Shown piece by piece: positions 30,804 to 48,022 of a stretch of DNA of 64,000 nt. Each line of letters begins with the position of its first letter. The stretch's first letter is position 1. Origin of the DNA: Actinomycetota bacterium (GTDB taxonomy: Bacteria; Actinomycetota; Acidimicrobiia; IMCC26256; VFJJ01); NCBI GenBank assembly GCA_009886115.1, contig VFJJ01000018.1, positions 1 to 64,000 on the forward strand. The letters are read 5' to 3'. A program made the translations under genes and the position numbers. Below the pieces are notes generated by a model that was not told where the DNA came from, made no database searches, and saw only the letters and a list, made by a program, of their open reading frames with translations.

Positions 30804-30820
30804 GAGGAGATCACGAGACC

Positions 30821-31717: not shown

Positions 31718-31763
31718 GGGCGGCGGCCGTATCGGAGCGACGTGGGGGAGGGCTCCCCGCACG

Positions 31764-31810
31764 GTTTCTTCGCGATTTCGCGCACCCCCGGTGAAAGATC
31801 GCGAAGAAAC
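31764..31810. repeat. Palindrome with perfect 13-bp arms upstream of the ade gene
   Basis: GTTTCTTCGCGAT ... CACC-CCC-GGTG ... ATCGCGAAGAAAC. Confidence 0.7.
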
Positions 31811-31833
31811 ACCGAAGGTTCTAGCCTCGTGCC

Positions 31834-33600
31834 ATGACCGAGCACATCGACCGGGCAACGCGGGGTCGGGCCGTGCGCGCTGCGCTGGGCCAGGAACCCT
31901 TCGATCTGATGCTGAGCGGCGGGACGGTCGTCGATGTCGGCGTCGGCGAGATGCGCTCGGCCGACGTGGGGATCGTCGGCCCGCTGATCGCCAGCGTCCA
32001 CGAAACCGGTTCCCGCACCGACAGCCGAAGCGTCTTCGACTGTCGTGGACGGTGGATCGCGCCGGGGTTCATCGACCTGCACGTGCACTTCGAGAGCTCG
32101 ATGCTCACCCCGCGGGCCTACGCGGAGGCCGTCGTCCCGCGCGGCACGACCACGGTCTTCGCCGACCCGCACGAGCTGGCGAACGTCGCCGGCGTGGCCG
32201 GGGTGCGGTACGCCGTCGACGCCAGCCGAGATCTGCCCGTCCGCTTCGTGATCCAGGCTCCGTCGTGTGTTCCGCCGCTGCCCGGGCTGGAGCTGTCGGG
32301 TTCCGACCTGTTCGCCGCCGAGATCGACGAGATGCTCTCGTGGCCCGAGGTCGGCGGCCTGGCCGAGGTCATGGACATGGGCGGCGTCCTCACCAGGGAC
32401 CTGAGGATGGTCGAGATCGTCGAGGCCGGCCACCGCAGCGGCAAGCTCGTGAGCGGCCATGCGGCCGGGCTCACCGGCCCGGCGTTGCAGGCCTACCTGG
32501 CGGCGGGGATCCTGTCCGATCACGAGGTGTTCGCCCACGTCGACGCCATGGAGAAGCTGCGCAACGGGATGACCGTCGAGCTGCGGGGGGCGTTCGACTT
32601 CGTGCTCCCGTCGCTTGTGGCCGAGATCGCCGCGCTTGCCGAGTTCCCGACGCACCTGGTGGCCGCGACCGACGATCTCTTCGCGCTCACCCTGCTCGAA
32701 CACGGTGGCATCGACGACCTGCTGCGCCGACTGGTCAGCCACGGGATGCCTCCCGTGCGAGCGTTGCGGATCGCCACCTACAACGGTGCGTACCGGCTGC
32801 AGCGCCCCGATCTCGGTCTCGTCGCCCCCGGACGCCGCGCCGACATCGTGGTGTTGTCGTCGCTCGACGACGTCGCGGTCGACGACGTGTTCTTCTCGGG
32901 CGCCCTCGTCGCCAGCCATGGCCGACTCGTGGTCGACCTGCCCGACCCTCCCGCCACTCCGCTGGCCGATTCGGTGAAGCTCTCGGCCATGGTGCCCGAC
33001 GACTTCGTGATGCGCCTCGACGTGCCCGACGGCCGTCACCGGGTTCGGGTCGTCGACGGCGTGGTGCTCACCGCGTGGGGGGAGGCCGAGGTCGAGGTGC
33101 GCAACGGTCGGGTCGAGCCGCCGGCCGGCCACCTCGTGCAGGTCGTCGTTCACCGCCACGGCCGGGTCGCGCCCACACCGGTCGCCGGGCTGCTGCATGG
33201 CTGGGGCGACTGGACCGGCGCGGTCGCCACCACCCTCAACCACGACACCCACAACCTCGGGGTCTTCGGACGAGACCCGCACGACATGGCCGTGGCGGCC
33301 AACGCGGTGATCGCCGCGGGGGGAGGTGTCGCAGTGGCGAGTGGTGGCGTGGTGCTGGCGCTGCTCGAGCTGCCGATCGCCGGTATCCTCTCGCCCCGTT
33401 CGGCAGCGGAGGTGGCCGGTCTCCAACGCCAGGTCTCGGACGCCGCGCTCTCGATCGGCCTGCCGGTGGGGCCGCTCACCCAGCCCCTCTTCTCGGTGAT
33501 GCTGATGAGCCTGGCCTGCCTGTCGGGTCCCCACTTCACCGACGTCGGGCTCGTCGACGGCACGACCGGGACCCGGGTGCTCGATCTCGTTATCGCCTGA
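31834..33600 (+). CDS. ade: Adenine deaminase (AdeC type)
   Basis: PGFIDLHVHFESSML, DPHELANV, LAEVMD, SGHA, SDHE, ATDD, HDTHNL. TAGCCT 6 nt before the ATG. Confidence 0.9.
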   Translation: MTEHIDRATRGRAVRAALGQEPFDLMLSGGTVVDVGVGEMRSADVGIVGPLIASVHETGSRTDSRSVFDCRGRWIAPGFIDLHVHFESSMLTPRAYAEAVVPRGTTTVFADPHELANVAGVAGVRYAVDASRDLPVRFVIQAPSCVPPLPGLELSGSDLFAAEIDEMLSWPEVGGLAEVMDMGGVLTRDLRMVEIVEAGHRSGKLVSGHAAGLTGPALQAYLAAGILSDHEVFAHVDAMEKLRNGMTVELRGAFDFVLPSLVAEIAALAEFPTHLVAATDDLFALTLLEHGGIDDLLRRLVSHGMPPVRALRIATYNGAYRLQRPDLGLVAPGRRADIVVLSSLDDVAVDDVFFSGALVASHGRLVVDLPDPPATPLADSVKLSAMVPDDFVMRLDVPDGRHRVRVVDGVVLTAWGEAEVEVRNGRVEPPAGHLVQVVVHRHGRVAPTPVAGLLHGWGDWTGAVATTLNHDTHNLGVFGRDPHDMAVAANAVIAAGGGVAVASGGVVLALLELPIAGILSPRSAAEVAGLQRQVSDAALSIGLPVGPLTQPLFSVMLMSLACLSGPHFTDVGLVDGTTGTRVLDLVIA

Positions 33601-33673
33601 CGGTCGGGGTCCGCGCAGGTGCCCTGAGCCCACCGGCAGCGCCGCCGAGCCCCGAGCCGAATAGCGTGTGACG

Positions 33674-35548
33674 ATGGACGAGGCGACGACCCCGACGTTC
33701 CCGACGTTCCCCACGACCGGCAGGGCGCTGGGCGCCGATCTCGTGCCGACGCCCGAGCAGATCATGCGTCTCCAGGCCGTCGCCCGCGGTGACGAGGTGG
33801 CCGATCTGGCGATCCGCGGCGGAACGGTGATGTCGGTGCACAGTCGCGAGCTCGTCGAGCGCGACGTGCTGATCGTGGGGCCGTACATCGCGGCGGTCAC
33901 CCCTCCCGGTCGGCTCCGCGCCGTCGTCGAGATCGACGCCGCCGGGCGATTCGTCACCCCCACCTTCGTCGACACGCACCTCCACATCGAGTACACGATG
34001 CTCACGCCCGGGGAGTTGGCCCGCCTCGTCGTGCCCCGCGGAACCACCACGGTCCTGGCCGACCCCAATTGCCTCGCCAACGTCTGCGGCGCCGCGGCGA
34101 TCGATGTCATGGGCCACACGACCACCCCCATGCGGATCTTCCAGCAGATCTCCCACAAGGTCCCCCGCGTTCCGGGACGTGAGCTGGGCGGAGCGACGGT
34201 CTCCGAGCAGGAGGTCCTCGACCGGTTGGTGCTCGCCACCACCGCCACCCTGGGCGAGTCGAACCCGTTCGACCTCGACCTCTCAGCGGCCCGCAAGGCC
34301 CACGTGACGCTGGCGGCCGGACGGCGTATCACCGGGCACACCGCCCGGCTCGCCGACGAGCCGTTGTGGTCGTACCTCGCCGGCGGCGTCGGCGACGATC
34401 ACAACGCGTTCAACACCACCGAGGTGCTCGATCGACTCCGTCTCGGCGTGATGATCACGGTGATGGCCGGCTCGATGAACGACAACGTGCCCCTCGTGTT
34501 CGCCGACGTCGACGCCGTCGCGGGCGGTTTCGACCACATGACCTTCTGCGCCGACGACCGTCACGTCGAGGACCTCCACGAGCTGGGCCACATCGATCAC
34601 CACGTTCGCAGCGCCATCGCCTGCGGGGTGCCCGTCGTCGAGGCCTACCGCATGGCCACGCTCAACGCGGCCCGTCACTACCGGCTCGACCACCTCCTCG
34701 GCTCGATCACGCCCAGCCGGCTCGCCGATCTCATGGTCCTCGACGATCTTGCTGCGGTCTCGCCGTCGCTCGTCGTCGTCGGGGGTGTCGTGGTCGCCGA
34801 GGACGGGCGGGCAGCCTTCGCCAACACCGACGCGCCCCTGCCCGCGTGGACACGCGACACCATGCGCCTGCACGCGGGCATCGGTGTCGAGACCTTCAGG
34901 GTGCCGGCGACCCCCGGGCCCGACGAGGTTGCCGTCGTCCGGGCGATGGAGATGTACGACGGTTACTTCAAGCGGGCCTTCGAGGCCGAGTTGCCCGTGG
35001 TCGACGGGAACGTGATCGCCGATCCGTCGATCGACGTCGCCAAGATCGCGGTGGTAGACCGCCATCACGCGACGTCGCACCGGGCGATGGGATTCGTTCA
35101 GGGTTTCGGTCTGCGCCGGGGCGCGCTCGGCATCACCTCGAATTGCGAGAACCAGAACCTGGTGGTGGTCGGTACGAGCGACGCCGATCTGGCGCTGGCG
35201 GCCAGCGCTCTGCGGGAGCTCGGGGGCGGCTACGTCGCCGTTGCTGACGGGCGGGTCCTGGCCTCGGTGCCGTTGCCGTACGGCGGGATCATGAGCGACC
35301 AGCCCTGGGAGGTGGTGCACGAGCAGTCGGTGGCGATCAACGCTGCCGCCCGGGAGCTGGGCTGCGACATGGCCAGCCCGTTCATGATCCTGGCGTTCGT
35401 CGGCCTCGCCGGCGTTCCCGACTACGGGCTCACCGAGCTGGGGCTGATCGACACGTTCACCCAGGAGATCATCCCCGTGCTGCTGTGCTGTCGATGCCCG
35501 CTGCACGTGCACCGAGCCCGGGTCCCGCCGCAGGGGGAGCCGGGGTGA
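33674..35548 (+). CDS. Adenine deaminase paralog with altered active-site motifs
   Basis: VDTHLHIEYTML, DPNCLANV, LGESNP, TGHTA, DDHNA, CADD. TAGCGT 6 nt before ATG 33674. Confidence 0.85.
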   Translation: MDEATTPTFPTFPTTGRALGADLVPTPEQIMRLQAVARGDEVADLAIRGGTVMSVHSRELVERDVLIVGPYIAAVTPPGRLRAVVEIDAAGRFVTPTFVDTHLHIEYTMLTPGELARLVVPRGTTTVLADPNCLANVCGAAAIDVMGHTTTPMRIFQQISHKVPRVPGRELGGATVSEQEVLDRLVLATTATLGESNPFDLDLSAARKAHVTLAAGRRITGHTARLADEPLWSYLAGGVGDDHNAFNTTEVLDRLRLGVMITVMAGSMNDNVPLVFADVDAVAGGFDHMTFCADDRHVEDLHELGHIDHHVRSAIACGVPVVEAYRMATLNAARHYRLDHLLGSITPSRLADLMVLDDLAAVSPSLVVVGGVVVAEDGRAAFANTDAPLPAWTRDTMRLHAGIGVETFRVPATPGPDEVAVVRAMEMYDGYFKRAFEAELPVVDGNVIADPSIDVAKIAVVDRHHATSHRAMGFVQGFGLRRGALGITSNCENQNLVVVGTSDADLALAASALRELGGGYVAVADGRVLASVPLPYGGIMSDQPWEVVHEQSVAINAAARELGCDMASPFMILAFVGLAGVPDYGLTELGLIDTFTQEIIPVLLCCRCPLHVHRARVPPQGEPG

Positions 35549-36789
35549 CCGGCTCGCCCCGCCCGCTGCTGGGCGCGGCGTTCCCGCTCCCGCGCCTCAC
35601 CGGGACCGAGGCCCGGGCCATCGCCGAGCTCGACGATGTGATCGAGGCTGTCATCGCCCCGCTGGCCGACGAGCACGACGCCGCCGGGCGCTACCCCACC
35701 CGGGCCGTGGCCGCGCTCAAGCGCAGCGGGATCCTGAAGATCTCGGTGCCTGCGGCCTTCGGTGGCCTGGGCGCCTCCCATGCCGCCAGCCTCGAGTGCC
35801 AGGTCCGGCTGGCGGCCGCCGACAGCTCGGTCGCCCAGATCTTCAAGGTCCACGACGAGCTGGTGCGGGAGATCTTCACGTTCTGCCCCGACGAGCTGAG
35901 GCCACGTCTGGCCCGGGCCGTGCTCGACGACGACGTCATCCTCGGGCTGGCAGTGGCCGAGGCCACCAGCACCGTCGCCGAGCCGCTGCGCACGACGGCC
36001 ATCGCCCAGCCTGACGGTGGCTACGTCATCGACGGCACCAAGATCTACACGACCGGCGCGGCCGAGGCCGACCTCGTCGCCGTCTGGGCACTGAACCCGG
36101 CCGAGCTCACCCCCGAGCAACCCTGGCGGGCGTTGCAGCTCAACCTCGTCCCGGCCGGTGCCGCGGGCATGACCGTCCACCGCGACTGGGACGCGCTCGG
36201 ACAACGAGCGACCGACTCCGGGACGATCACGTTCGCCGGCGTCCGAACCGACCCTCGCTGGAAGGCCTCCGAGCCCGGCCGCGCCCCGTTGCCCCACAGC
36301 GGCGCCCGGTTCGAGGCCGGGTTCGCCGCCTGCGCCGTCGGCATCGGGATCGGCGCCCTCCGAGCCGGTGTGGCGTTCGTGAACGAGCACAGCCGGCCCT
36401 GGCCGGCAGCCGGTGTGAGCAACGCGGCCGACGACCTGCTCGTCCAGCGCAAGGCCGGCCAACTCGTCGCCGATCTCGTGGCCGCGTACGCGCTGGTCGA
36501 GCGCTGCGGCGAGCTGCTCGACGCGTTCGAACGGGGAGAGCTCGGGCGGACCGCGCTGGCCGTGCCGATCTACGCGGCCCGCTCCGCTGGCGACCGTGCC
36601 GGGTTGGCCGCGGCGGCTGATGTCATGTCGCTGTTGGGGACCCGCTCGGCGCGTAGCACCCATCGCTTCGACCGGTGGTGGCGCAACGTCCGCACCTTGT
36701 CCCTGCACGATCCGGTGGAATGGAAGCATGCCGAGATCGGGCGTCACGTGCTGACGGGCTGGGACCCTCCACCGGGCATCTACACGTGA
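35545..36789 (+). CDS. ACAD-fold flavin monooxygenase (DszC/SfnB-like)
   Basis: ADSSVAQIFKVH, GTKIYTTGA, DWDALGQRATDSG, FDRWWRNVRTLSLHDP. GTGA overlap with the ade paralog. Confidence 0.85.
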   Translation: MTGSPRPLLGAAFPLPRLTGTEARAIAELDDVIEAVIAPLADEHDAAGRYPTRAVAALKRSGILKISVPAAFGGLGASHAASLECQVRLAAADSSVAQIFKVHDELVREIFTFCPDELRPRLARAVLDDDVILGLAVAEATSTVAEPLRTTAIAQPDGGYVIDGTKIYTTGAAEADLVAVWALNPAELTPEQPWRALQLNLVPAGAAGMTVHRDWDALGQRATDSGTITFAGVRTDPRWKASEPGRAPLPHSGARFEAGFAACAVGIGIGALRAGVAFVNEHSRPWPAAGVSNAADDLLVQRKAGQLVADLVAAYALVERCGELLDAFERGELGRTALAVPIYAARSAGDRAGLAAAADVMSLLGTRSARSTHRFDRWWRNVRTLSLHDPVEWKHAEIGRHVLTGWDPPPGIYT

Positions 36790-36827
36790 GCTCCCCGGCT
36801 CTGCCATCGATCCCGAAAGGTCGGCCC

Positions 36828-37838
36828 ATGACCACGCCATCGATCGACGCCGAGTTGATCCGGCGGATGCCCAAGGTGGAGCTGCACATCCACCTGGAGG
36901 GGTGCTTCACGCCGGCCCGGATCGCCGAGCTGGCCGAGCGGGCCGACGAGCCGCCACCCCGGCCGCTGGGCGAGCTCTGGGCTGTCGACAACCTCGCCGA
37001 CTTCCTCCTGTCGCTCGATTGGGTGTGCTCGCTCGTGCGCGACGCCGAGACCGCCGAGACGATCGCGCTCGACTTCGCCCGCTACGCCCACGATCAGGGG
37101 ATCGCCTACGCCGAGGTCATCGTCAACCCCACGCACTGGACGGGCCTGAGCACCGACACGCTGTTCGCGGCGTTGGCGTCGGGGTTCGACCGGGCGGCCC
37201 GCGGCGGGCTCGGCGATTTCCGGCTGCTGCCGTCGATCCTGCGCCAGCAGTCGGCCGACGACGCCGTCGCGCTCGTGCGATGGATGGGCGCCGCCGGCAT
37301 CGATCGCATCGTCGGCCTGTCGATCGACGGGAACGAGGCCGCAGCCGGTCGCACGGGGACGCGCTTCGCCGGCGCCTACGCCCTGGCCCGGAGCTTGGGA
37401 CTGGGTGCGACGGCCCACGCCGGTGAGTCGTCAGGTGCCGAAGGGGTCCGCGACGCCATCGAGCTGCTCGGGGTCAGCCGCATCGATCATGGCATCCGTT
37501 GCGTCGAGGACCCAGCCGTGCTCGACCTCGTCATCGAGCGCGGCATCACCCTCAACCTCTGCCTCACGTCGAACTGCACGCTGGTGTACGGCCACCTCGA
37601 CGCCCATCCCGTCGTCGAGCTGGCCCGGGCCGGCGTTTCCTTCACGATCAACACCGACGACCCGGAGACCCTCGGCGTCACCTTGTGCTCTGAGCTGGAG
37701 CTGGCTGGCGCCCATCTGGGTTGGACGACGGCCGATCTCGTCGCGGCCCAGCGCCGGGCCGTCCGGGCCGCGTTCTGCGACCCGACGACCCGGCTGAAGC
37801 TCACCGGCGCGCTCGACCGCTTCGCGCAGGGCGGCTGA
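36828..37838 (+). CDS. add: Adenosine/adenine deaminase (ADA family)
   Basis: PKVELHIHLEG, AHAGE, RIDHG, NTDDP. Confidence 0.9.
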   Translation: MTTPSIDAELIRRMPKVELHIHLEGCFTPARIAELAERADEPPPRPLGELWAVDNLADFLLSLDWVCSLVRDAETAETIALDFARYAHDQGIAYAEVIVNPTHWTGLSTDTLFAALASGFDRAARGGLGDFRLLPSILRQQSADDAVALVRWMGAAGIDRIVGLSIDGNEAAAGRTGTRFAGAYALARSLGLGATAHAGESSGAEGVRDAIELLGVSRIDHGIRCVEDPAVLDLVIERGITLNLCLTSNCTLVYGHLDAHPVVELARAGVSFTINTDDPETLGVTLCSELELAGAHLGWTTADLVAAQRRAVRAAFCDPTTRLKLTGALDRFAQGG

Positions 37839-37873
37839 TCGCTCGGGTACTCGGGCGCCGACAGCTCGGGCGG

Positions 37874-38812
37874 CTATCGGTCGGCCACGTAGTTGACGCC
37901 GAGCCCCCGGGGCATCCGCGCCCGACGGGCCCCGATGATCAAGATGGTGAGGGCCACGAGGAAGGGGATGGCATTGAGCGCCTCGGTCGGGACGTCTCCC
38001 GAGACGACGTTGCGCAGGTTCGACGAGAACGCCTCGAAGAAACCGAACACGAACGCTCCCACGGCGGCGCCCCACACGCTCCAGCTGGCCATGATGATGA
38101 CGATCAGGGCGATGAAGCCCCGGTTGGCCGTGAGGAACGGTTGGAACTGGCCCACCTGGCCCAGCATGAGCGCGCCCCCGCCGACGCCTCCGAGGAACCC
38201 CGACAGGAGGCAGGCGAGGCTCCGTACCCGGACGACAGGCACGCCCCGGGCCGCGGCTGCGTCGGGATCCTCACCCACCGCCCGCACCTGCAGGCCGAAC
38301 GTGGTCCGGGCCGAGCACCACCACGCGATGGGGACGAGCGCGAAGCCCATCCAGCTGATCCAGTTGTTCCCGAAGATGGCATCGCCGAGGAAGGGCACGT
38401 CCGAGAGCCCGGGGATGTCGATCTCGGAGAGGCGCGACACCCGACGGGCATCCTGGGGGGTGGGGGTGGTCTCCCGGAAGACGAACCCCGTGAGGCCGAT
38501 GCCGAGGGTCGTGAGCGCGAAGCCGACGACGACCTGGTTGGCGCTGAGGCGGACGCTCAGCGCCACCATGAGCAGCGCCATCAGCATGCCGGCGATGCCC
38601 CCTGCGAGCAGGCCGATGAGCGTCCCCGTCTCAACGGCCACATAGAGGCTGGTGAGCGAACCGACGATCATGTAGCCCTCGAGGCCGATGTTCAACACCC
38701 CGGCTCGCTGCGAGAAGGTCTCGCCGATCGATGCGTAGATGAGCGGCGTCGCCAGGCGAAGACCACCCGAGATCGAGGCGATCCAGAAGGTCTCGGTGAG
38801 CAGGCGGTCCAT
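37874..38812 (-). CDS. Nucleoside-type ABC permease 2
   Basis: QRAGVLNIGLEG, ANQVVVG, RAVGEDPDAAAARG, NRGFIAL. Confidence 0.9.
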   Translation of the reverse strand: MDRLLTETFWIASISGGLRLATPLIYASIGETFSQRAGVLNIGLEGYMIVGSLTSLYVAVETGTLIGLLAGGIAGMLMALLMVALSVRLSANQVVVGFALTTLGIGLTGFVFRETTPTPQDARRVSRLSEIDIPGLSDVPFLGDAIFGNNWISWMGFALVPIAWWCSARTTFGLQVRAVGEDPDAAAARGVPVVRVRSLACLLSGFLGGVGGGALMLGQVGQFQPFLTANRGFIALIVIIMASWSVWGAAVGAFVFGFFEAFSSNLRNVVSGDVPTEALNAIPFLVALTILIIGARRARMPRGLGVNYVADR

Positions 38813-38814
38813 GG

Positions 38815-39981
38815 TCAACGCCCCCGGGCCGAGCCGGCCGCGGGCGTTGAGCCGGAGGCCCGGCTCGACCGGTCGGGGACGAGACGGAACGATCGAGCGG
38901 CTCTCCGCAGCAATGATGCGATCTGCGGCGCGTAGCGCACCGCGAAGCCGAGGAGGATGAGCGCCTGGATCACGTCGCTTAGCGACGCCGGGATGCCCTC
39001 GCTCGACTGCATGGCCAGGCCGCCCGACTGGAGCGCCCCGAAGAGGAGGGATGCGGCGAGGATCCCGGCCGGTCGTGCTGCACCGAGGAACGCCACGACC
39101 AGACCGAAGAACCCGATCTCCGATGCGATCTCGAGATAGAGGCGCTGCAACAGGCCGGCGGCCTGGATCCAGCCGACGACGCCGGCCGCGGCGCCCGAGA
39201 TCAGCAGCGAGTTGAGCACGACCCGCCGGCCGGGGATCCCCAGGCTCTCGGCGAGCCGCGGGTTCTCGCCGTAGAGGTCGTACCGGAACCCGACCGTCGA
39301 ACGGATCCACCACCACAGGCCCAGCAGCACCGCGGGGGCGACGAGCACGCCGATGTGGAAGCGGGTGCCGTCGATCACGAGGCCGAGCACGCCGTTGTCG
39401 GGGTAGGCATCCGACTGCGGGGTGATCGCGGCTGGAGGCTTGAGCGGGCCGTTGAGCAGGTACTCGATCAGCAGCGCGGCGAACTCGGTGAACAACAGCG
39501 TCGAGAGGATCTCGTTGACCCCGAGGTAGGCGCGCAGCAACGCGGGCACGAGCGCCCAGGCCGCTCCGAAGAGAGCTCCGCCGATCGCCGCCGCCGGGAT
39601 CGCCAGGCCCGACGGAGCGCCGTCGAACAGCTTGGCTGTGAGGAGCGCGCCGATGGCCCCCACGATCACCTGGCCCTGGGCGCCGATGGTCACCATGCCG
39701 GCGCGCAGTGCCACGGCGGCTCCTGCGCCCACGATCACGAGCGGTGCCGACCGGGCCAACGTCTCGCCGATCGCGAACTTCGAGCCGAACGCCCCGTCGA
39801 GCATGGCGCCGTACGCGCTGAACGGGCTGTCGCCCGAGACGAGCAGGATCACGCCGCCGACGATCAGGGCTCCCAGCACGGCGAGGATGCTCGTGCTCGC
39901 GCCGATGGTGGCCCGCTCGAGGCCCGATGCCTCGAGCTCGACATCGTCGTGCGTCTCGGCGACGACCGGCTCGTCAGCCAT
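38815..39981 (-). CDS. Nucleoside-type ABC permease 1
   Basis: RAGMVTIGAQGQ, GVNEILSTLL, multiple TM segments. Confidence 0.9.
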   Translation of the reverse strand: MADEPVVAETHDDVELEASGLERATIGASTSILAVLGALIVGGVILLVSGDSPFSAYGAMLDGAFGSKFAIGETLARSAPLVIVGAGAAVALRAGMVTIGAQGQVIVGAIGALLTAKLFDGAPSGLAIPAAAIGGALFGAAWALVPALLRAYLGVNEILSTLLFTEFAALLIEYLLNGPLKPPAAITPQSDAYPDNGVLGLVIDGTRFHIGVLVAPAVLLGLWWWIRSTVGFRYDLYGENPRLAESLGIPGRRVVLNSLLISGAAAGVVGWIQAAGLLQRLYLEIASEIGFFGLVVAFLGAARPAGILAASLLFGALQSGGLAMQSSEGIPASLSDVIQALILLGFAVRYAPQIASLLRRAARSFRLVPDRSSRASGSTPAAGSARGR

Positions 39982-41584
39982 GATGGTCTGCCCTTGGGGC
40001 GCCGCCGGTCCCCGCGCCCGCGCCCCGGCCCGCGCCCGGTCGCGGTCGCGGTCGCGGTCGAGCCATGCCGGCCATGGCCGCGCCCAGACGGCCCGACGTC
40101 ATGTCCTCGATGGCGAACTCGTCGGTGACCCGTCCCCCGCTCAGCACCACGACCCGGTGGGCCAGCTCGCGAACCTCGTCGAGGTCGGCGCTGATCACCA
40201 CGACCGCCCCACCCCGCTCGGCAACGGCGAAGCACCGGTCGCGCATGGCCCGAGCGGCATGGGGGTCGAGCCCCTTGGTGGGGCCGGCAGCCACCAGCAC
40301 CGCAGGATCGCGCTCGAGCTCGCGTGCCGCCATCAGCTTCTGCTGGTTGCCTCCCGACAGCGCTCCGGCAATGGCGCTGGGCTCAGGAGGGCGCACCTCG
40401 AAGCGGCCGGCCAGCTCGCGGACGTGCGCTCCGACCGGGCCCGGCAACCGCACGCCCAGACGGGCGAAGCCCCGGTCGCCGATGCGCCGCGCGATGGCGT
40501 TGTCGGCGAGGGTGAACCCGTGGGCCAGACCGGTGGCGCGGTCTTCGTGGAGATGGGCCATCCCGGCTGCGATGGCCTTGCGACTCGACCCGGTCACGTC
40601 GACGCCGTCGACCACGACGTGTCCCCGGGTGGGCCGCCGCACGCCGGTGAGCACCTCGGCCAGAGCCTCCTGGCCGTTGCCCGCCACGCCGACGACACCG
40701 ACGATCTCGCCGCCGCCGACCGTGAAGCTCACCCCGTCGAGCCCGACACCGTGATCGAGGTGCGCTCCGAGGCCCTGGGCCGAGAGGCGCACCTCGCCGC
40801 GGACCGTCTGCGGGCGCTCGACCCGGAGCAGCGACAGGTCGCCGATCATGAGCTCGGCGATACGGGCCAGGTCGGCCTGACGCACGTCCTCGCCGGCGAG
40901 CACGACACGGCCCTGGCGCAGGATGGTGAGCCGGTCGGCCAGCTGGGCCAGCTCGGGCAGGCGATGGGAGATGTAGATGATCGGCGTGCCTTCGGCCCTC
41001 AGTCGTTGACACAGCCGGATGAGGGCGTCGGTCTCGACCGGGCCCAGCGCGGAGCTGGGCTCGTCGAGGATGAGCGCCCGTGCTCCCCAGGCGACGCCGA
41101 TGAGGATCTCCGCCTGCTGACGCACGGCCAGGGGCAGGTCGTCGACGATCGTCGCGGCCGGCACCGCCAGCCCGAGCTCATCGGACAGGCGCGTGACCTC
41201 GGCCCGGGCTGCCCTGGCGTTGAACAGGGCCGATGCGTTGGGCCGTCCGAGCTGCAGGTTCTCGGCGACGGTGAGCCCTCGCACCAACGAGAGCTGTTGG
41301 CGGATGTGCGCCACCCCGCGGGCCGCGCCTTCGCGTCGTGAGCCCGGTGCATACGGTTCGCCGAACAGCGCCATCTCGCCGCTGTCGGCGCGCAGCACGC
41401 CGGCGACGATCTTGGCCAGGGTCGACTTGCCGGCTCCGTTCTCGCCGACCAGGGCGTGGATCTCGCCGGCCCGCAACGTGAAGTCGACATCGGCCAGCGC
41501 CTGCACCGCGCCGAACCGGCGGGAGATCCCCCGGGCCTCGAGGACCGGGGGATCTCCCGTGATCGGAGGGACGCCGCTCGGCAT
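39974..41584 (-). CDS. Nucleoside/sugar ABC ATPase (double domain)
   Basis: GENGAGKST, LDEP, GVAGNGQ, LSGGNQQK, ISADLDEV. Confidence 0.92.
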   Translation of the reverse strand: MPSGVPPITGDPPVLEARGISRRFGAVQALADVDFTLRAGEIHALVGENGAGKSTLAKIVAGVLRADSGEMALFGEPYAPGSRREGAARGVAHIRQQLSLVRGLTVAENLQLGRPNASALFNARAARAEVTRLSDELGLAVPAATIVDDLPLAVRQQAEILIGVAWGARALILDEPSSALGPVETDALIRLCQRLRAEGTPIIYISHRLPELAQLADRLTILRQGRVVLAGEDVRQADLARIAELMIGDLSLLRVERPQTVRGEVRLSAQGLGAHLDHGVGLDGVSFTVGGGEIVGVVGVAGNGQEALAEVLTGVRRPTRGHVVVDGVDVTGSSRKAIAAGMAHLHEDRATGLAHGFTLADNAIARRIGDRGFARLGVRLPGPVGAHVRELAGRFEVRPPEPSAIAGALSGGNQQKLMAARELERDPAVLVAAGPTKGLDPHAARAMRDRCFAVAERGGAVVVISADLDEVRELAHRVVVLSGGRVTDEFAIEDMTSGRLGAAMAGMARPRPRPRPGAGRGAGAGTGGAPRADHHG

Positions 41585-42750
41585 CAGCCGGGCGTGGGGA
41601 ACGGGATCTCGAACGTGCCGTCCTGCACCGAGGCGATGAGGTCGTCGACGATGGCCTGGAGCTCGGCCGGGGTCTTGGCCAGCTCGACGGTCACGCCGGT
41701 GTTGATGGGAAGGACCGCGACCTGGTTGTTGAAGATGCCCGAGGGGTTGAAGGCGTCGTCGGGCTCCTCGCCGAATGTCCCGTCGCGGAGCTCGACGAAC
41801 CAGTTCAGGTAGAGGTCCTTCAGCACCATCTGCGTCGCCGAGACCAGCACCTCGGGTGCCGTGTCGAGCTGCGTGCCGAATCCGGTCGAGATCGGGATGC
41901 CGGCCGCCGACGCAGACTGGACGGCGCCGATGCAGATGCCGTCACCCGAGCAGTAGATGAAGTCGGCGCCCTGGTCGATGAGCGACTGGGTGACCTCGGC
42001 GGCCTTTTGCACGTTGATGAAGTCACCGGCGAAGCCCTCGAGGAACTCGACGTCGTCGCGCACCGACTGCACGCCCTCGCGAAACGCCTCGTGCCCATCC
42101 TTGACGAACTGGAACTCGGGACCGCCGACCACCCCGATCGTCTCCCCGATGAGCGCGTGGCCGGCCACGACGCCGTTGGGGTAGGCCATGTCCTGCAGGT
42201 TGTACAGCCAGTCCTCGACGTTGGGACCGGTCGTGGCTCCTTCGACGAGGACGCCGCCCGACATCGTGAAGTTCACGTCGGGGAACTCGGAGTACACCTG
42301 TTGGATGGGATCGACGTACTCGATGCCGTGGCCGATGACGAGGTCGTACCCCTGCGTCGCGAAATCGCGAATCGCGGGCAGCGAGTCGGTCGGGTCGACC
42401 AGCTCCTCGATGAACGTGCACTCGATCGCACCGTCCTCGGCGGCGGCATTCAGCAGGCCCTGGTAGCCGCCCTGGCTGAACGAGTTGTCGTTGCGGATAC
42501 CCGGCAACAAGAGCGCGACCCTGAGCACGTCCTTGGTCGCGGACTGACTCGTGTTGCTGCACTCGCCTTCACCACCACCATCACCTTCGGCGGGGGCGGT
42601 GGTGTCGGTCGCTCCCGCGGTGGTGCCGCTCTCCGGTGCCGCCGTGGTCTCGGCGGACGATCCCGAGTCGTCGTCATCGCCACATGCCGTGGCGAACACC
42701 GTCAACGCGGCGGTCGCCACGACGATCCACCATTGCGAACGCTTGCTCAT
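41584..42750 (-). CDS. BMP-family nucleoside-binding lipoprotein
   Basis: Lipobox ATACGDDDDS; NDNSFSQGGYQGL, GYDLVIGHG, LIDQGAD. Confidence 0.9.
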   Translation of the reverse strand: MSKRSQWWIVVATAALTVFATACGDDDDSGSSAETTAAPESGTTAGATDTTAPAEGDGGGEGECSNTSQSATKDVLRVALLLPGIRNDNSFSQGGYQGLLNAAAEDGAIECTFIEELVDPTDSLPAIRDFATQGYDLVIGHGIEYVDPIQQVYSEFPDVNFTMSGGVLVEGATTGPNVEDWLYNLQDMAYPNGVVAGHALIGETIGVVGGPEFQFVKDGHEAFREGVQSVRDDVEFLEGFAGDFINVQKAAEVTQSLIDQGADFIYCSGDGICIGAVQSASAAGIPISTGFGTQLDTAPEVLVSATQMVLKDLYLNWFVELRDGTFGEEPDDAFNPSGIFNNQVAVLPINTGVTVELAKTPAELQAIVDDLIASVQDGTFEIPFPTPG

Positions 42751-42795
42751 GTTCCCTCCCGGTGAGCACCGTCCCCATGCGGCGCCACGTGGGGA

Positions 42796-42851
42796 AAGCT
42801 ACCAAGCTCGCGCAGGTCACAACATTTCTCCGGTGTTACGGCCGTCGAAAC
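42796..42851 (-). promoter_or_regulatory. Probable GlnR box and -10 element of the nucleoside ABC operon
   Basis: Minus strand GTTTC-n7-GTAAC-n6-GAAAT-n3-GTGAC, then TAGCTT (42796-42801). Matches the GTNAC-n6-GAAAC pattern. Confidence 0.6.
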
Positions 42852-42894
42852 GACCAGCGCGCGAGCGTCGGGCGTGGATCGACCGGCAGCGTGT

Positions 42895-44277
42895 TCACCG
42901 GTCGCCGATGCTCTGACGCAGGAGACGGCGTGCCTCGCGAGCAACCGCTCGTTCGTCGACGGTGACGCAGCGACCGTCACGCACGACGACGCGGCCGTTC
43001 ACCACGACGAGATGGGCCCGGTCGGAGATCCCCGTCAAGACCAAGCCGGCCACGGGATCGTGCACGCCCACCCGGTCGACGGTCGTCATGTCCCAGCCGG
43101 CCAGGTCGGCACCGAAGCCCGGGGCCACCACACCGAGGTCGGTGCGGCCCAGACACCGGGCCGAGCCCCGGGTCGCCATCCGTAGCAGCTCGCGCGCCGA
43201 CAGCCAGCGCCGCGGATCGGCGGAGCTCATCCGGTGCGCCAACGCCGCGACCCGCAGGTCGCCGAGCACGTTCGAGCCGTCGTTGCTGGCCGAGCCGGTC
43301 GTGCCGAATCCCATCTTCACGCCGGCATCGAGCATCTCGCGCACCGGTGAGAGGCCCCAGCCCATCTTCAGGTCGGGGCCGATCAGGTGGGCGACGCCCA
43401 CACCCGCCGCCGCGAACTCGGGTATCTCCTCGGCCGGGGGATCGACGACGTGCGCCAGCCAGACCCGCTCGCTGTGCCAGCCATGGCGCAGCAGGATCCG
43501 CCAGGGTGTGGTGCCGTAGCGCTCGGCGCAGAACCGGGTGTCGACGACCTCGTAGAGGTGCGTGTGAAGCCCGACGCCCGGGTTCAGCGCGGCGAGGATC
43601 GCCGTCTCGGTGTAGAGCTCGAGACGATCGGCGTGCACACCGCACGGAGCGAGGTCGATGCGCACCATGGCGAGCGGCTCGGGGTCGTGGTAGCTCTCGA
43701 TGAGGGCCTGCGAGTGCTTGAGCACCTCGTCGATCGTCTGCACGACGACGTCGGGAGCGCTGCCGCCCCGGTCGCGGCCCAGTGTGATCGACCCCCGGCC
43801 GGCGTGGAGTCGGAGGCCCACCTCGGTCGCCGCCTCGATGGTCTCCTCGATGAACGGCAGGGTCCAACCACCCGGGAAGAAGTAGTGCTGGTCGGCGACG
43901 GTCGTGACGCCGGTGAGCACCGACTCGACCATGCCGGCGCGGGCCAGGGCGCCGACCGTCTCGGGCTCCATGGCGCCGTTGCGCCACATGTCCAGACAAC
44001 GGGTCGTGACGCCGCGGAGCCAGGGGAGGATCGTCGTGCGCTCGAGCTCGGGCAGGGCGCGCAGGCCGATCTGGTAGAGGTGGTTGTGGGCGTTGACCAA
44101 CCCGGGCAGCACGAGCAGGCCCTCGCCGTCGATGACCTCGGTGTCGGGCGGGCAGGGCAGATCGGACCCGACCGCGACGATGCGTCGACCCTCGACCAGC
44201 ACGTCGACATCGACGAGCTCGCGGTCGGCGTCGTCGCAGGTGACCAGATGGGAGATACGTCGGAGGAGCAGGCTCAC
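42895..44277 (-). CDS. Metal-dependent amidohydrolase, TrzN (triazine hydrolase)-like
   Basis: NAHNHLYQ, ADQHYFFPG, PCGV, HTHLYE, WLAH, PDLKMGWG, GFGTTGSASND, WLSARELLRMATRGSA, VDRVGVHDP. Confidence 0.85.
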   Translation of the reverse strand: MSLLLRRISHLVTCDDADRELVDVDVLVEGRRIVAVGSDLPCPPDTEVIDGEGLLVLPGLVNAHNHLYQIGLRALPELERTTILPWLRGVTTRCLDMWRNGAMEPETVGALARAGMVESVLTGVTTVADQHYFFPGGWTLPFIEETIEAATEVGLRLHAGRGSITLGRDRGGSAPDVVVQTIDEVLKHSQALIESYHDPEPLAMVRIDLAPCGVHADRLELYTETAILAALNPGVGLHTHLYEVVDTRFCAERYGTTPWRILLRHGWHSERVWLAHVVDPPAEEIPEFAAAGVGVAHLIGPDLKMGWGLSPVREMLDAGVKMGFGTTGSASNDGSNVLGDLRVAALAHRMSSADPRRWLSARELLRMATRGSARCLGRTDLGVVAPGFGADLAGWDMTTVDRVGVHDPVAGLVLTGISDRAHLVVVNGRVVVRDGRCVTVDERAVAREARRLLRQSIGDR

Positions 44278-44283
44278 GACACC

Positions 44284-44312
44284 AGGATGTTGAACCGGGA
44301 GGCCCGCGTCAA
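44284..44312 (-). promoter_or_regulatory. SigA-type leaderless promoter of the TrzN-like gene
   Basis: TTGACG-17 nt-CATCCT, ending 6 nt before the GTG at 44277. Confidence 0.6.
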
Positions 44313-44503
44313 CCGCCAGCGCGCGAGACCGCCTTCCGAGGGTCGTGCGCGGTGAGTCCGAGGCAGCCGCCGCCACGTGCGGGGACCGCGCGGTGACCGG
44401 GAGCCCGGTCGAGCGTGTCGCCGCCGTGTGCCGCCTTCCTGGTCCCCTGCCCGGCCGCTGCCCCCTGTGCCCCGGCCGGCCTCGTTGGTTTAGTGTCCCG
44501 CCG

Positions 44504-45628
44504 GTGGTGCGGGGACGCGAGCTGGGGATCGCCATCGGGCGAGGTCGGCCGGGGCCGCTCGACGCGATCACCGACGTGGCCGGCGTCCGAGTGGGCCACG
44601 CCACCATCGTCGAGGGCGACGACGTCCGAACCGGGGTCACGATCGTGGAGCCCCGGCCCGGATCGGCCTACGAGGAGCCGTGCTTTGCCGGTATCCACCG
44701 TCTCAACGGCAATGGGGAGCTGACCGGGGCCCACTGGATCGCCGAGTCGGGGCTGCTGGGCGGACCGGTGGCCATCACGAACACCCACAGCGTCGGCGCG
44801 GTCCACGAGGCCCTGGTGGCCCTGGAGCGCGAGCGCCGCCCCGACGTCGACGACTGGGCCCTGCCGGTCGTGGCCGAGACCTGGGATGGGTGGCTGAACG
44901 ACATCGACGGCTTCCACGTGAGGGCCGAGCACGTGCGCTCGGCCGTGGCCGGCGCGGCCGGGGGCCCGGTGGCCGAAGGTGCGCTCGGCGGGGGGACGGG
45001 CATGGTCTGTCACGGCTGCAAGGGCGGGATCGGGACCGCGTCGCGGGTGACCGACGACGGGTGGACCGTGGGCGCGCTCGTCCAGGCCAACTACGGCCAA
45101 CGAGAGCTGCTCCGGGTCGACGGTTACCCGGTGGGCCGGGTGCTCGACGACGACCGCCTCCCGCTCCCGCTCGACCCTCGTGACACTCCTCGCCCCGGAC
45201 GCGGTGGCGGGACGGGACCGGATGGCCGCGGCTCGATCATCGTGGTGCTGGCGACCGATGCTGCGCTGGTGCCCCACCAGTGCACGCGTCTCGCTCAGCG
45301 GGCGACGATCGGCCTGGCCCGAGCGGGGGGATGCGGCGACGACTCGAGCGGCGACCTGTTCCTCGCCTTCTCGACGGGCAACTCCGGGCTCCGGCCGGCG
45401 CCCCCCGAGCCGGGAGAGCGGGTCGAGCCGGTCACGATCGGCTTCCTGCCGAACGCGGCGTTGACCCCGCTGTTTCACGCCGCCGCCGAGGCGGTGGAGG
45501 AGGCGATCCTCAACGCGCTCCTCGCTGCTGTCACCACCACCGGGCGCGGCGGTCGCACGGCTTGGGCCCTGACCCCCGAGGCTCTCCTGGCGGCCTTGGC
45601 CGAGACCGGATGGCGCCCGTCGACATGA
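44504..45628 (+). CDS. P1/S58 family peptidase (DmpA-like)
   Basis: AITDVAGVRVGH, NGNGELTG, TNTHSVG, PVVAETWDG, G|SIIVV autocleavage site, SGDLFLAFST. Confidence 0.9.
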   Translation: MVRGRELGIAIGRGRPGPLDAITDVAGVRVGHATIVEGDDVRTGVTIVEPRPGSAYEEPCFAGIHRLNGNGELTGAHWIAESGLLGGPVAITNTHSVGAVHEALVALERERRPDVDDWALPVVAETWDGWLNDIDGFHVRAEHVRSAVAGAAGGPVAEGALGGGTGMVCHGCKGGIGTASRVTDDGWTVGALVQANYGQRELLRVDGYPVGRVLDDDRLPLPLDPRDTPRPGRGGGTGPDGRGSIIVVLATDAALVPHQCTRLAQRATIGLARAGGCGDDSSGDLFLAFSTGNSGLRPAPPEPGERVEPVTIGFLPNAALTPLFHAAAEAVEEAILNALLAAVTTTGRGGRTAWALTPEALLAALAETGWRPST

Positions 45629-45697
45629 CAGGTGATCGAGCCCGCTCCCGGGCGCCGTGCGATCCGACCGTCGGGTTGCGGTGGGCCCGCCGAGCGA

Positions 45698-47089
45698 TCA
45701 GAGCTCGAGCAGGGCCTGTTCGACGGCCTCGGTGAGCGCGGGGTGGATGTAGATCACGTCATGGGCGAGCTGGTCGACGGTCTGGCCGAACGTCATGGCC
45801 TGCACGAGCGGCTGGATCAGGGTGGCCGCCTGGGGGCCCATGATGTGGGCGCCGAGCAGGAGTCGGGTCTCGGCGTCGGCGATCAGCTTCACGAACGAGG
45901 TCGTATCGCGGAGCGCCCATCCGTAGGCGGTGTGCGAGTAGTCGCGCACCGCGATCGACAGCGGACGTCCCGTCTCGCGGGCGGCGCGCTCGGTGAGCCC
46001 GACGGCCGCCACCTGCGGGTCGGCGAACACGGCGTGCGGGGCGAGGGGGAAGGTTCCCGTGCGGAGGTCGTCGGGGTGCAGGAGGTTGTGGCGCAGGGCC
46101 CGTCCCTCGGCATTGGCCATGTGCTTGAGCTGGAGGTGGTTCGCCAGGTCGCCGAACGCGAACACGCCGTCGACCGAGGTGCGGAGGTACTCGTCGACGA
46201 GCACATGACCATGGACGTCGACGGCGATCCCGGCCGCGGCGGCGTCGAGCAGATCACTGTTGGGGATTCGCCCGGTCGCCACGAGCACCGTGTCGACGGT
46301 GAGCTCCGATGGGCCGACCGTCTCGGCCCCGGCCGATGGCCTCGATGTCGACGTGAGGTTGAGCATGATCCCTTCACCACGCTGGCGCATCCCCACCACG
46401 CGAGCGTTCGTGTGGATCTCGAATCGTCCTCGGGCGATCTCGGTGAAACGCCGGCTCACGTCGTGATCTTCGGCGGTGAGCAGCTCGGCGCCGCGCTGGA
46501 CGATCGAGACGTGCGAGCCGAGCGCCTGGAAGACGTGGCCCAGCTCGGCGGCGATGAACCCACCTCCGATGATGGCCAACCGGGCCGGGAGGGTTTCGAG
46601 GCGCATGATCGTGTCTGAGGTGTGGAACGGAACCTCGTCGAGCCCGGGGATGTCGGGGATCATCGGCCGGGCTCCGGCAGCCAGGACGATTCGGTCGCCG
46701 GTGATGCGCTGACCGTCGATCTCGAGCACCTTGGGAGCCACGAAACGGGCCGTACCCTCGTACACGACGGTACCCGTCCGGCGGCGGTACTCGATGGCGC
46801 TGGCGTGCGCGGGATCGATGGGGGCGAAGACCCGGTCCCGAATGGCTGGCCAGTCGACGGCGTCGAGGCTCGCAGTGATGTCGAAGCGGGCCGCGTGGCG
46901 GACGTGCTCGGCGATGTCGGCGGAGTGGACGAAGATCTTCGACGGGATGCAGCCTCGGTTCAGGCACGTGCCGCCGAAGCGGTCGCGCTCGACGATCGCG
47001 ATGCGCCATCCCTCGAATTCCGGTCCGGGGAGCATGTTGCCGCTGCCGGCCCCGACGATCACCAGGTCGTAGCGCTCCACTGTGGCCAC
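45698..47089 (-). CDS. mtr: Mycothione reductase
   Basis: GAGSGN, GGTCLNRGCIPSK, QLKHMANAE, YIHPALTEAVE. Confidence 0.85.
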   Translation of the reverse strand: MATVERYDLVIVGAGSGNMLPGPEFEGWRIAIVERDRFGGTCLNRGCIPSKIFVHSADIAEHVRHAARFDITASLDAVDWPAIRDRVFAPIDPAHASAIEYRRRTGTVVYEGTARFVAPKVLEIDGQRITGDRIVLAAGARPMIPDIPGLDEVPFHTSDTIMRLETLPARLAIIGGGFIAAELGHVFQALGSHVSIVQRGAELLTAEDHDVSRRFTEIARGRFEIHTNARVVGMRQRGEGIMLNLTSTSRPSAGAETVGPSELTVDTVLVATGRIPNSDLLDAAAAGIAVDVHGHVLVDEYLRTSVDGVFAFGDLANHLQLKHMANAEGRALRHNLLHPDDLRTGTFPLAPHAVFADPQVAAVGLTERAARETGRPLSIAVRDYSHTAYGWALRDTTSFVKLIADAETRLLLGAHIMGPQAATLIQPLVQAMTFGQTVDQLAHDVIYIHPALTEAVEQALLEL

Positions 47090-47482
47090 CTGCCCTCGGG
47101 GTTGGGTCGGTGGTGAGTCTCCCGCCGAAAGGACCCGTTCCCGGGATCGAGGTGAAGCCGGGTGTTGTGCGCTCGGCGGCGGCTCAGGAGGATGGCTCAG
47201 GAGGATGGCGCGGATCGGCGGCGGAGCACGACGACGACTCCCCCTCCGATCGCTGCGACCGCGGCGAGGATCCCGACCACCACGGCCGCACCCCCACCGT
47301 CACCGTGAGTGGGAACGCAACCCGGTCCTGAGCGGCGATGAGACCGCCTTCCCACCGTGAACAGCACGGCTCCCGAGGACTTCGATCCGATTCGCTGGGA
47401 GACGTCGTCCCGACGCCGCACCCGGGACCACTTGGGACCGCTCGGCTCGGTGTGCCGGTGGTCGATCGGCCAACATCGCCGC

Positions 47483-48022
47483 ATGGGTGATCGACGGGCG
47501 TTCCGAAGTGTGGTCGTGGCGATGGCTGGCGCGTGTGCCATGACGCTGGCTGGCGCGTGCGCCGGCGACGATGATTCCGACGATGATTCCGACGGTGATC
47601 GCCTCGCTTCGGTCTGTGACTCCGTCGAGGTGCTCGTCGAACCCATCCAGGGTCACGTCCTGCCCGGGGTGGCCGTCTCGTACCGGTACCATCCGCCCAC
47701 GTCGGGACAGCACGTCCCCGAGCTGCCCGAGGCGGGAGTGCACACCGTGCCGATAGACGAGACCCGCCAGGTCTTCGCCCTCGAGAACGGCTTCGTGATG
47801 CTCCAGTACGGGCCCGCTGTCTCCGATGACGATCAACGTGCACTCGAAGCGCTGGCCGAGCTGGACGACCGCGTGATCGTGGCCCCTGCGGTGTCGATCG
47901 ACGACGACAGAGTCATCGCGCTGACGGCCTGGCAGCGGCGCCAGCTCTGCGGCGGTGTCTCGACCGACGATGTCCGCTCGTTCGTGGCGAGCCACGTCGG
48001 CCAAGGGCCCGAGAGTGCGTGA
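47483..48022 (+). CDS. DUF3105-like lipoprotein
   Basis: LAGAC lipobox; H-x-YxxxPPTSGQH, LENGFVMLQY, IALTAW. Confidence 0.75.
   Translation: MGDRRAFRSVVVAMAGACAMTLAGACAGDDDSDDDSDGDRLASVCDSVEVLVEPIQGHVLPGVAVSYRYHPPTSGQHVPELPEAGVHTVPIDETRQVFALENGFVMLQYGPAVSDDDQRALEALAELDDRVIVAPAVSIDDDRVIALTAWQRRQLCGGVSTDDVRSFVASHVGQGPESA

Follow-up and report, generated by a model that had tools for sequence, protein, structure and literature searches.

From what natural enzyme did the atrazine hydrolase TrzN arise, and what did that enzyme do before atrazine? The question is raised by a gene on the minus strand (42895-44277) of a 64,000-nucleotide stretch of DNA (the window) from a member of the Acidimicrobiia. 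The gene encodes a zinc amidohydrolase of 460 residues, here called the hydrolase, which belongs to the TrzN family and lies among genes of purine type. Of the two known atrazine dechlorinases, TrzN has the higher efficiency. The natural origins of AtzA and TriA, and recently also that of AtzB, have been traced by experiment; our literature search, which left subscription journals mostly uncovered, found no paper on natural relatives of TrzN or on its origin. The evidence presented here indicates that the hydrolase, a mononuclear zinc amidohydrolase of the TrzN family, is probably native to the chromosome and has a role of purine type, not one in herbicide degradation.

The hydrolase belongs to the TrzN family

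The translation of the gene begins at a GTG codon, runs for 460 residues to a stop and contains Pfam Amidohydro_1 and Amidohydro_3 domains. The frame is open further in the 5' direction, up to 44640; a start at 44277 is likely, because TrzN and 119 database relatives align with the 460-residue form from its residues 1-4 onwards. The motif GFGTTGSASND lies at residues 323-333 (43279-43311), exactly where a first reading made from the sequence alone (the sequence-only reading) had placed it, and the other motifs listed in that reading are all present, the translation also containing APCGVH, HTHLYE, PDLKMGWG, EEIPEFA, WLSARELLRMATRGSA and VDRVGVHDP. By this motif and by its alignment column, the codon at 43297-43299 (minus strand) specifies Thr327, which corresponds to Thr325 of TrzN and to the strand-8 Asp of the deaminases.

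A phmmer search of the PDB gave TrzN (3LS9) as the best match, with 564.8 bits over hydrolase residues 3-447 and E = 1.4e-168, a value that puts the resemblance far beyond chance. TrzN and variants engineered from it took the top six places (558-565 bits, E about 1e-167), followed by 7WW2, an isocytosine deaminase also labelled 8-oxoguanine deaminase and AtzB-like (303.8 bits), 3HPA (297.2 bits), 2PAJ (182 bits) and AtzA (111.7 bits). With tblastn, trzN of plasmid pTC1 was 57% identical to the hydrolase, the range over our comparisons being 55-57%. The NCBIfam model of 8-oxoguanine deaminase (NF006055) gave 402.9 bits for the hydrolase and 361.5 bits for TrzN, where its equivalog cut-off is 532. 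The close resemblance to the TrzN motifs noted in the sequence-only reading was thus borne out, as was its expectation that the protein groups with TrzN rather than with the 8-oxoguanine deaminases, both by these scores and by the trees described below (clade supports of 100 and 99).

An AlphaFold model built on 35 relatives (predicted local distance difference test 92.2, predicted template modelling score 0.93) had 3LS9_A as its top Foldseek match, with template modelling (TM) scores of 0.96/0.98 and a root-mean-square deviation of 1.2 Å. The catalytic set is complete: H, H, H, E, H and T occupy TrzN positions 63, 65, 238, 241, 274 and 325 (numbered after the pTC1 gene), with His64, His66, His240, Glu243 and His276 of the hydrolase in the columns of His63, His65, His238, Glu241 and His274 of TrzN. 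The hydrolase and TrzN of Paenarthrobacter aurescens TC1 and Nocardioides (3LS9, 3LSB/3LSC, 4L9X and 5HMD-5HMF) therefore have length, fold, clade and catalytic residues in common, the last of these with Thr at the site of the strand-8 Asp and with the Glu of HxxE. The 8-oxoguanine/isocytosine deaminases (3HPA, 7WW2) are the next-nearest characterised group, at 36-38% identity and a TM score of about 0.9; they share the motifs HxHxxQ, DxHY and HTHxxE with the hydrolase, whereas the hydrolase has Thr for the catalytic Asp and a 4-residue insertion after a conserved Trp, and falls into a separate clade.

G+C content stays near 70% over the whole window, without a break in composition at the hydrolase gene, and the genome (5.45 Mb, 95.6% complete) has this one gene of the TrzN clade, its other paralogues being at most 43% identical. 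No transposase, integrase or atz gene was found among the 57 open reading frames (ORFs) scanned with Pfam across the window, in agreement with the earlier observation that neither insertion sequences nor atz genes flank the gene. This chromosomal setting of purine type contrasts with that of trzN, which is carried by plasmid pTC1 away from any purine genes, flanked by genes for Toprim-domain, thermonuclease-family, large ATP-binding and hypothetical proteins; according to PMC1713258, it is part of a repeat of about 16 kb that occurs six times. By its residues at the TrzN-special sites (see below) and by its lack of a mobile or atz context, the window protein is not an atrazine-adapted TrzN in the strict sense.

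Threonine marks a whole natural clade

The sequence-only reading took the exchange of Asp for Thr to be the hallmark of TrzN. A word-indexed search found G-x-G-T-T-G in all 119 of the best database relatives of the hydrolase (55-80% identity), most of which, where the source is named, come from Acidimicrobiia metagenome-assembled genomes, the others being from Candidatus Poriferisocius, one Microbacteriaceae metagenome-assembled genome, Dermatobacter hominis and Nonomuraea; with TrzN as query, a further member came up in Pseudonocardia cypriaca. Representatives of the wider family that are full length most often have G-V-D-G at this site (for example, GLGVDGSASN), and the contrast of Thr with the Asp of relatives was accordingly seen as described. 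Thr is indeed present in both TrzN and the window protein, but, on these alignments, it is the hallmark of the whole natural clade, mostly of Acidimicrobiia, and not of TrzN alone. The 2015 paper on the AtzA structure (PMC4356373) regards Thr325 of TrzN as unique in the amidohydrolase superfamily, and the Thr-type family of TrzN appears there as a "ninth subgroup".

In a library of representatives at 50% identity, one full-length representative was more than 50% identical to the hydrolase and the next was 41% identical, showing that the Thr-type clade is compact and well separated. A FastTree of 138 rows united the hydrolase, TrzN and all sampled hits with a support of 100; at TrzN position 325, Thr was present in 41 and Ser in one of the 42 rows of this clade, and outside the clade and its three nearest outgroup rows Asp was present in 87 rows. 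In a short IQ-TREE search (LG+C20, 55 rows), the 33 clade rows split off with an SH-aLRT value of 99. Within them, TrzN grouped with P0113 and P0105 (97), in a set of six rows (100) and in a larger one of 16 (99), on an end branch of 0.32, roughly fourfold the length of its two sisters' branches (0.07-0.08). The hydrolase fell into a different subclade, beside P0004 (79% identical). Both trees are unrooted, and the supports are FastTree values and SH-aLRT, respectively. Unnamed metagenome proteins are up to 71% identical to TrzN, compared with 55-57% for the window hydrolase, which is therefore not the natural protein nearest to TrzN. Natural genes of this kind number several hundred, and their occurrence is patchy: of 300 other genomes of the class that were sampled, 6 had a clade gene (E <=1e-120, with the five best candidates per genome scored).

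Some members deviate at catalytic positions. HTHLYQ, with Gln at the position of Glu241 as in the engineered E241Q, occurs in several (among P0040, P0046, P0055, P0115 and P0123); the Nonomuraea protein P0115 has HTHLHH instead of HTHLYE, and in P0123 positions 241 and 325 are Cys and Ser, respectively. Among the nearest outgroups, P0126 has T-T with Gln241, and P0157 and P0260 have T-S, with Gln where the third metal His would be. For P0126 and P0157, searches turned up no characterised protein that matched better than TrzN and the 8-oxoguanine/isocytosine deaminase group. An identification of the Asp-type sister clade (HTH-x-H-P) as isoxanthopterin deaminase was rejected, P0151 scoring 194 bits to 2PAJ and 297 bits to 7WW2. 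Thr-type members (P0004, P0010, P0072, P0122 and others) are named "8-oxoguanine deaminase" by JGI/NCBI; because the catalytic Asp is missing and the scores are under the NCBIfam cut-off, this name is probably wrong, a systematic misannotation.

Sites at which TrzN departs from its natural relatives

We aligned the hydrolase and TrzN with 114 hits, giving 115 natural sequences. Among the 161 columns conserved in at least 90% of these, TrzN deviates at 14, and the window hydrolase deviates at none of the 14. Specifically, Q68E and G161S of TrzN are common to the five natural sequences most similar to it; H214P with Tyr215 is found elsewhere only in P0113 and P0105; D197E is matched by one natural sequence; and Y131L, L239F, D277V, E143D and G136A are found in no natural sequence. 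Judged from this distribution, the departure of TrzN from the natural form is stepwise. Where TrzN has Glu68, Leu131, Pro214/Tyr215, Phe239 and Val277, the hydrolase has Gln69, Tyr132, His215/Ala, Leu241 and Asp279, which are the natural consensus (93-99%). In the predicted structure the deviant sites lie 1-4 positions past the C-terminal ends of strands 60-65, 124-131, 205-211, 236-240 and 272-275, and the model thus puts them on the catalytic face of the amidohydrolase barrel. Positions 214 and 215 are also the ones engineered in 5HMD, 5HME and 5HMF, according to the PDB titles. Glu68 was found in none of the fetched loci, as read in 13 of the 15 most TrzN-like of them, and a metagenome scan for TrzN's nearest natural relatives (P0113, P0105, P0091, P0093 and P0117) found nothing closer than 67% identity.

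A precedent for an enzyme of the atrazine pathway derived from one acting on modified purines is AtzB, whose natural progenitors are N2,N2-dimethylguanine hydrolases (NdmH), according to Drexler et al. 2026 (PMC13054789); these enzymes are of the same superfamily branch as the window hydrolase. In that paper, Tyr133 of N2,N2-dimethylguanine hydrolase flanks the substrate, its change to Ala causes a 2100-fold loss, and adaptive changes of AtzB are at 213, 214 and 217; according to it and to PMC12828455, the Gln after strand 1 binds the substrate at its exocyclic oxygen in the guanine-deaminase branch. In our family alignment, which does not include NdmH, the Tyr of D-x-H-Y and the P-C motif align with Tyr132 and Cys212 of the hydrolase. 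The substrate-flanking Tyr of NdmH/AtzB and their second-shell sites near the strand-4 P-C motif therefore appear to match sites at which TrzN departs from its relatives. NdmH and AtzB retain the Asp and release amines, whereas the TrzN clade has Thr. A word search of the text of PMC13054789 and PMC12828455 found no mention of TrzN.

Recurrence of the neighbourhood in related genomes

The surroundings of the gene were compared in 81 loci: the window and 80 others, which were chosen from species-representative genomes among the 260 relatives found. Genes were called by a codon-position G+C rule, the products were clustered and the clusters were named by Pfam/NCBIfam matches of one representative each; the presence of neighbours was re-scored by tblastn, so that missed gene calls are immaterial. 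The most frequent neighbour was a molybdenum subunit of the xanthine dehydrogenase family (55/81), followed by a BMP-type ATPase (44/81), an adenosine-deaminase family gene (30/81), adenine deaminase (27/81), a glutamine-synthetase-like gene (20/81), a Rieske/VanA-type oxygenase (16/81), a phosphomutase (12/81), a 2-oxoglutarate oxygenase (11/81) and a purine nucleoside phosphorylase (3/81).

Fifty-eight loci, 57 from other genomes and the one in the window, were well flanked, with at least 5 kb on both sides. A purine-type neighbour was present in 53 of them, a molybdenum hydroxylase in 48, the BMP importer in 37 and an adenosine or adenine deaminase in 35. When loci were grouped at 80% hydrolase identity, the respective numbers were 23, 21, 10 and 16 of 28 groups, and at 70% identity they were 10, 9, 4 and 8 of 13. 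A second set, from metagenomes of mostly soil and freshwater, contained 53 loci at 50% identity or more, 33 of them with at least 3 kb of total flank; a purine-type neighbour was found in 27 of the 33, a molybdenum hydroxylase in 25, a deaminase in 11 and the importer in seven (one locus of this set, L109, is on the same contig as L009 of the first). By way of baseline, the window's genome has 15 molybdenum-subunit and eight Bmp genes, which corresponds to about 5% and 2.5%, respectively, per random 17-kb stretch. The recurring link to purine genes anticipated from the single sequence was thus found (53/58), but its commonest partner is the molybdenum hydroxylase (48/58), which is absent from the window, and not the importer.

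The molybdenum enzyme encoded beside the hydrolase is no canonical xanthine dehydrogenase: the glyceraldehyde dehydrogenase and CoxL-like models match it best, and it is under every NCBIfam cut-off, including that of xanthine dehydrogenase. It is often divergent and directly adjoins the hydrolase gene (L003-L081; for example, at 5600-7904 on the minus strand of L008), and in a sponge-associated group just its large subunit adjoins the hydrolase gene, beside a glutamine-synthetase-like gene. Other amidohydrolases were also seen. In eight loci (L026, L032, L057, L060, L061, L070, L077 and L080) a second one, from the same branch of the superfamily, lies immediately upstream on the same strand, with the motif G-x-G-S-D-G and with 5'-deoxyadenosine deaminase and "N-ethylammeline chlorohydrolase" as nearest models, under cut-off; in L031-L048 another paralogue follows the importer.

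Genes around the hydrolase in the window

Four importer genes lie directly downstream of the hydrolase gene on the same strand, with mutual overlaps of 1-8 nt. The first (41584-42750, minus strand) encodes a substrate-binding protein of the BMP/PnrA family (Pfam Bmp, 108.6 bits; best PDB match 4P98, 150 bits) with an N-terminal hydrophobic, signal-like segment and GGGAGGG before its ATG. It is followed by an ATPase with two ATP-binding cassette (ABC) domains (39974-41584, minus strand; Pfam ABC_tran in two stretches), whose nearest NCBIfam models are BMP- and sugar-type ATPases, none reaching cut-off, and by two ABC importer permeases on the minus strand, at 38815-39981 (Pfam BPD_transp_2, 119.7 bits) and at 37874-38818 (BPD_transp_2, 122 bits on the longer ORF 37874-39316), the start of the latter being set at the 4-nt overlap with the gene upstream, as trimmed by the gene caller. 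This architecture, a Bmp-domain binding protein, a double-ABC ATPase and two BPD_transp_2 permeases, is that of BMP/PnrA importers. A BMP-family importer is therefore present where the sequence-only reading had a nucleoside importer; its ligand may be a nucleoside, a base or something else, as the binding protein matches relatives of known ligand only distantly, with 37 bits to 6PI5 (AtzT) and 36 bits to TmpC, and 4P98 is uncharacterised. BMP-family binding proteins accompany triazine or purine hydrolases in two unrelated settings, one being the window and the other that of 6PI5, titled "atrazine periplasmic binding protein", which is AtzT and accompanies the triazine catabolic genes on the atrazine plasmid of Pseudomonas sp. 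ADP.

The hydrolase and binding-protein genes are separated by 144 nt (42751-42894). A scan of 37500-44800 found no promoter-like site and two terminator-like sites, both on the plus strand, compared with 1.2 expected; Rfam at E up to 0.1 found no known RNA or riboswitch in 30000-48000, and no operator or repeat common to the intergenic regions of 31000-46000 was found, just chance-level repeats within coding sequence. The hydrolase and importer genes may be co-transcribed.

Convergent with the importer operon is a plus-strand operon of four genes. Two are adenine-deaminase-like, at 31834-33600 and 33668-35548, each with Pfam Adenine_deam_C and Amidohydro_1 and with 362.4 and 352.7 bits, respectively, to TIGR01178 (cut-off 472.5). 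The third, at 35545-36789, encodes a flavoenzyme of the acyl-CoA-dehydrogenase fold (Pfam Acyl-CoA_dh_N, _M and _2) nearest to the sulfur oxygenases SfnB (NCBIfam, 244.6 bits; cut-off 430.9) and DszC (187 bits). The fourth, at 36786-37838, is of the adenosine-deaminase family (Pfam A_deaminase, 212.9 bits; TIGR01430, 225.6 bits, cut-off 216.55), with an uncertain start, the ORF being open from 36675. At least 18 related loci also have the block of flavoenzyme and deaminase in convergent orientation to the importer, and a flavin oxygenase within a purine deaminase operon (31834-37838) is an unexplained combination.

On the other side, a gene for a family S58 (DmpA-type) peptidase (44345-45628, plus strand) diverges from the hydrolase gene at a distance of at most 67 nt. 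It is common only to L002, the locus of the closest relative, where it is 77% identical, and sits where other genomes have the molybdenum hydroxylase. Elsewhere in the window, two unusual fusions were seen on the plus strand: an 887-residue Ser/Thr protein kinase with a C-terminal FGE-sulfatase-type domain (21591-24254), and a 1298-residue protein with polysaccharide-export (Polysacc_synt) and glycosyltransferase domains (8200-12096).

Possible function and alternative explanations

According to PMC4356373, three His of TrzN bind zinc, a fourth His and the Thr hold a water molecule that, activated by the zinc, attacks the ring carbon, and Glu241 protonates the ring. Because its catalytic set of the TrzN type is complete, similar chemistry is expected of the hydrolase: His64, His66 and His240 would bind the metal, His276 and Thr327 would hold the metal-bound water, Glu243 would protonate a ring nitrogen of the substrate and, by analogy, the enzyme should exchange a ring-carbon substituent of an N-heterocycle for a hydroxyl group. 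Retention of Gln69, Tyr132, His215 and Asp279 suggests that the enzyme probably acts on a polar heterocycle that has an exocyclic oxygen adjacent to the carbon under attack; a purine is indicated by the purine-type neighbours, and the loss of the Asp throughout the clade suggests that the leaving group likely needs no deaminase proton relay. The natural substrate may be a substituted oxo-purine or a similar polar heterocycle, which the BMP-family importer would take up as base or nucleoside and which would be further processed with the convergent operon of two adenine-deaminase-like genes, flavoenzyme and adenosine-deaminase-like gene. The gene may in this sense represent a pre-herbicide function of the TrzN lineage, as the sequence-only reading had suggested.

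Several points weigh against a role of this kind. The molybdenum hydroxylase that is so frequent elsewhere is missing here, and a purine-type neighbour is lacking in five of the well-flanked loci (L020, L022, L024, L025 and L055). Just a single genome supplied the baseline, and the related loci are kin, nearly all of Acidimicrobiia, so that shared gene order is partly descent. The substrate class is deduced only from neighbours and conserved residues, and the equivalence of hydrolase and NdmH residues from an alignment without NdmH itself. In addition, the 144-nt gap could hold a separate promoter, and the binding protein is only a distant BMP family member, whose ligand could be other than a purine.

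The kinship of the loci would also fit an inherited gene order without functional coupling, in which the enzyme acts on an internal metabolite or damaged base and the importer is unrelated, as would the 144-nt gap and the limited recurrence of the importer (37 of 58 well-flanked loci and 10 of 28 groups at 80% identity). However, different subclades have different purine-type partners (the importer, the molybdenum hydroxylase, purine nucleoside phosphorylase and deaminases), which selection for a shared pathway fits better than a frozen gene order does, and the patchy occurrence of the gene is as expected of an accessory catabolic gene; we consider an uncoupled enzyme very unlikely. That the hydrolase is a true s-triazine hydrolase degrading xenobiotics such as atrazine or ametryn is hardly credible. 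The full TrzN catalytic set and fold make some promiscuous triazine activity plausible by analogy, and PMC4356373 cites a kcat/Km of TrzN for atrazine of about 1e5 per M per s. However, no atz, plasmid or transposase genes were found in the window, and the window protein has none of the TrzN-special substitutions (E68, L131, P214/Y215, F239 and V277). Moreover, the same gene order is found in marine and sponge-associated Acidimicrobiia with proteins just 60-70% identical, indicating that the gene is far older than herbicides.

A Thr-variant deaminase or alkylaminohydrolase, in which an amine leaves 8-oxoguanine, isoguanine, 2,8-dihydroxyadenine, an N-alkylated guanine or another purine or pterin and the Thr tunes the metal-bound water, is an alternative that we hold to be doubtful, although worth keeping in view. 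Nearly all characterised relatives of the branch are deaminases, deaminases and molybdenum hydroxylases are among the neighbours, and the progenitor of AtzB turned out to be an N2,N2-dimethylguanine hydrolase (PMC13054789); TrzN itself, according to PMC4356373, can also hydrolyse amine leaving groups once these are protonated via Glu241. Against this, the strand-8 Asp of deaminases deprotonates the water and starts a proton relay, and Thr has taken its place in 119 of 119 clade members, which suggests that different chemistry is required. The 2010 study of the TrzN structure reportedly found that both T325D and T325E abolish TrzN activity.

For the preferred reading, a native enzyme with a purine-type role, one specific form can be put forward as a tentative guess, itself rather unlikely to hold in full: the Thr-type clade may be "2-X-6-oxopurine hydrolases" that remove a C2 substituent other than a simple amine, such as a methylthio, methylsulfinyl or methoxy group, from a hypoxanthine-like ring to give xanthine, in an as yet undescribed route for the salvage or degradation of 2-substituted adenosines. 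A 2-methylthio- or 2-methoxy-hypoxanthine would be compatible with every neighbour. Candidate sources would be 2-methylthio-N6-alkyladenosines from tRNA and 2-methoxyadenosine (spongosine) from sponges, in which many clade members live. PMC4278203 reports that sponges make 2-methoxyadenosine, its text giving "3-methoxy adenosine", and among the titles listed in our literature search there was nothing on enzymatic breakdown of such 2-substituted compounds. The importer would bring in the nucleoside, the adenine/adenosine-deaminase-like enzymes would strip N6 to leave an O6 bound by Gln69, the SfnB/DszC-like flavoenzyme may oxidise the thioether to a better leaving group and the molybdenum hydroxylase would carry the product onward. 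TrzN would then have arisen via Q68E, followed by H214P with Tyr215 and finally by Y131L, L239F and D277V, changes that would have turned an oxo-purine pocket into one accepting alkylamino-triazines.

Significance

The existence of the gene is not in itself astonishing, but the locus lets the origin of TrzN and its job before atrazine be tested at the bench, and the natural gene is carried by cultured Nonomuraea, Pseudonocardia cypriaca and Dermatobacter hominis. The sites at which TrzN departs from its natural counterparts are few, conserved and located on the barrel's catalytic face, and the Thr-type active site is an old natural invention with ties to purine-type catabolism.

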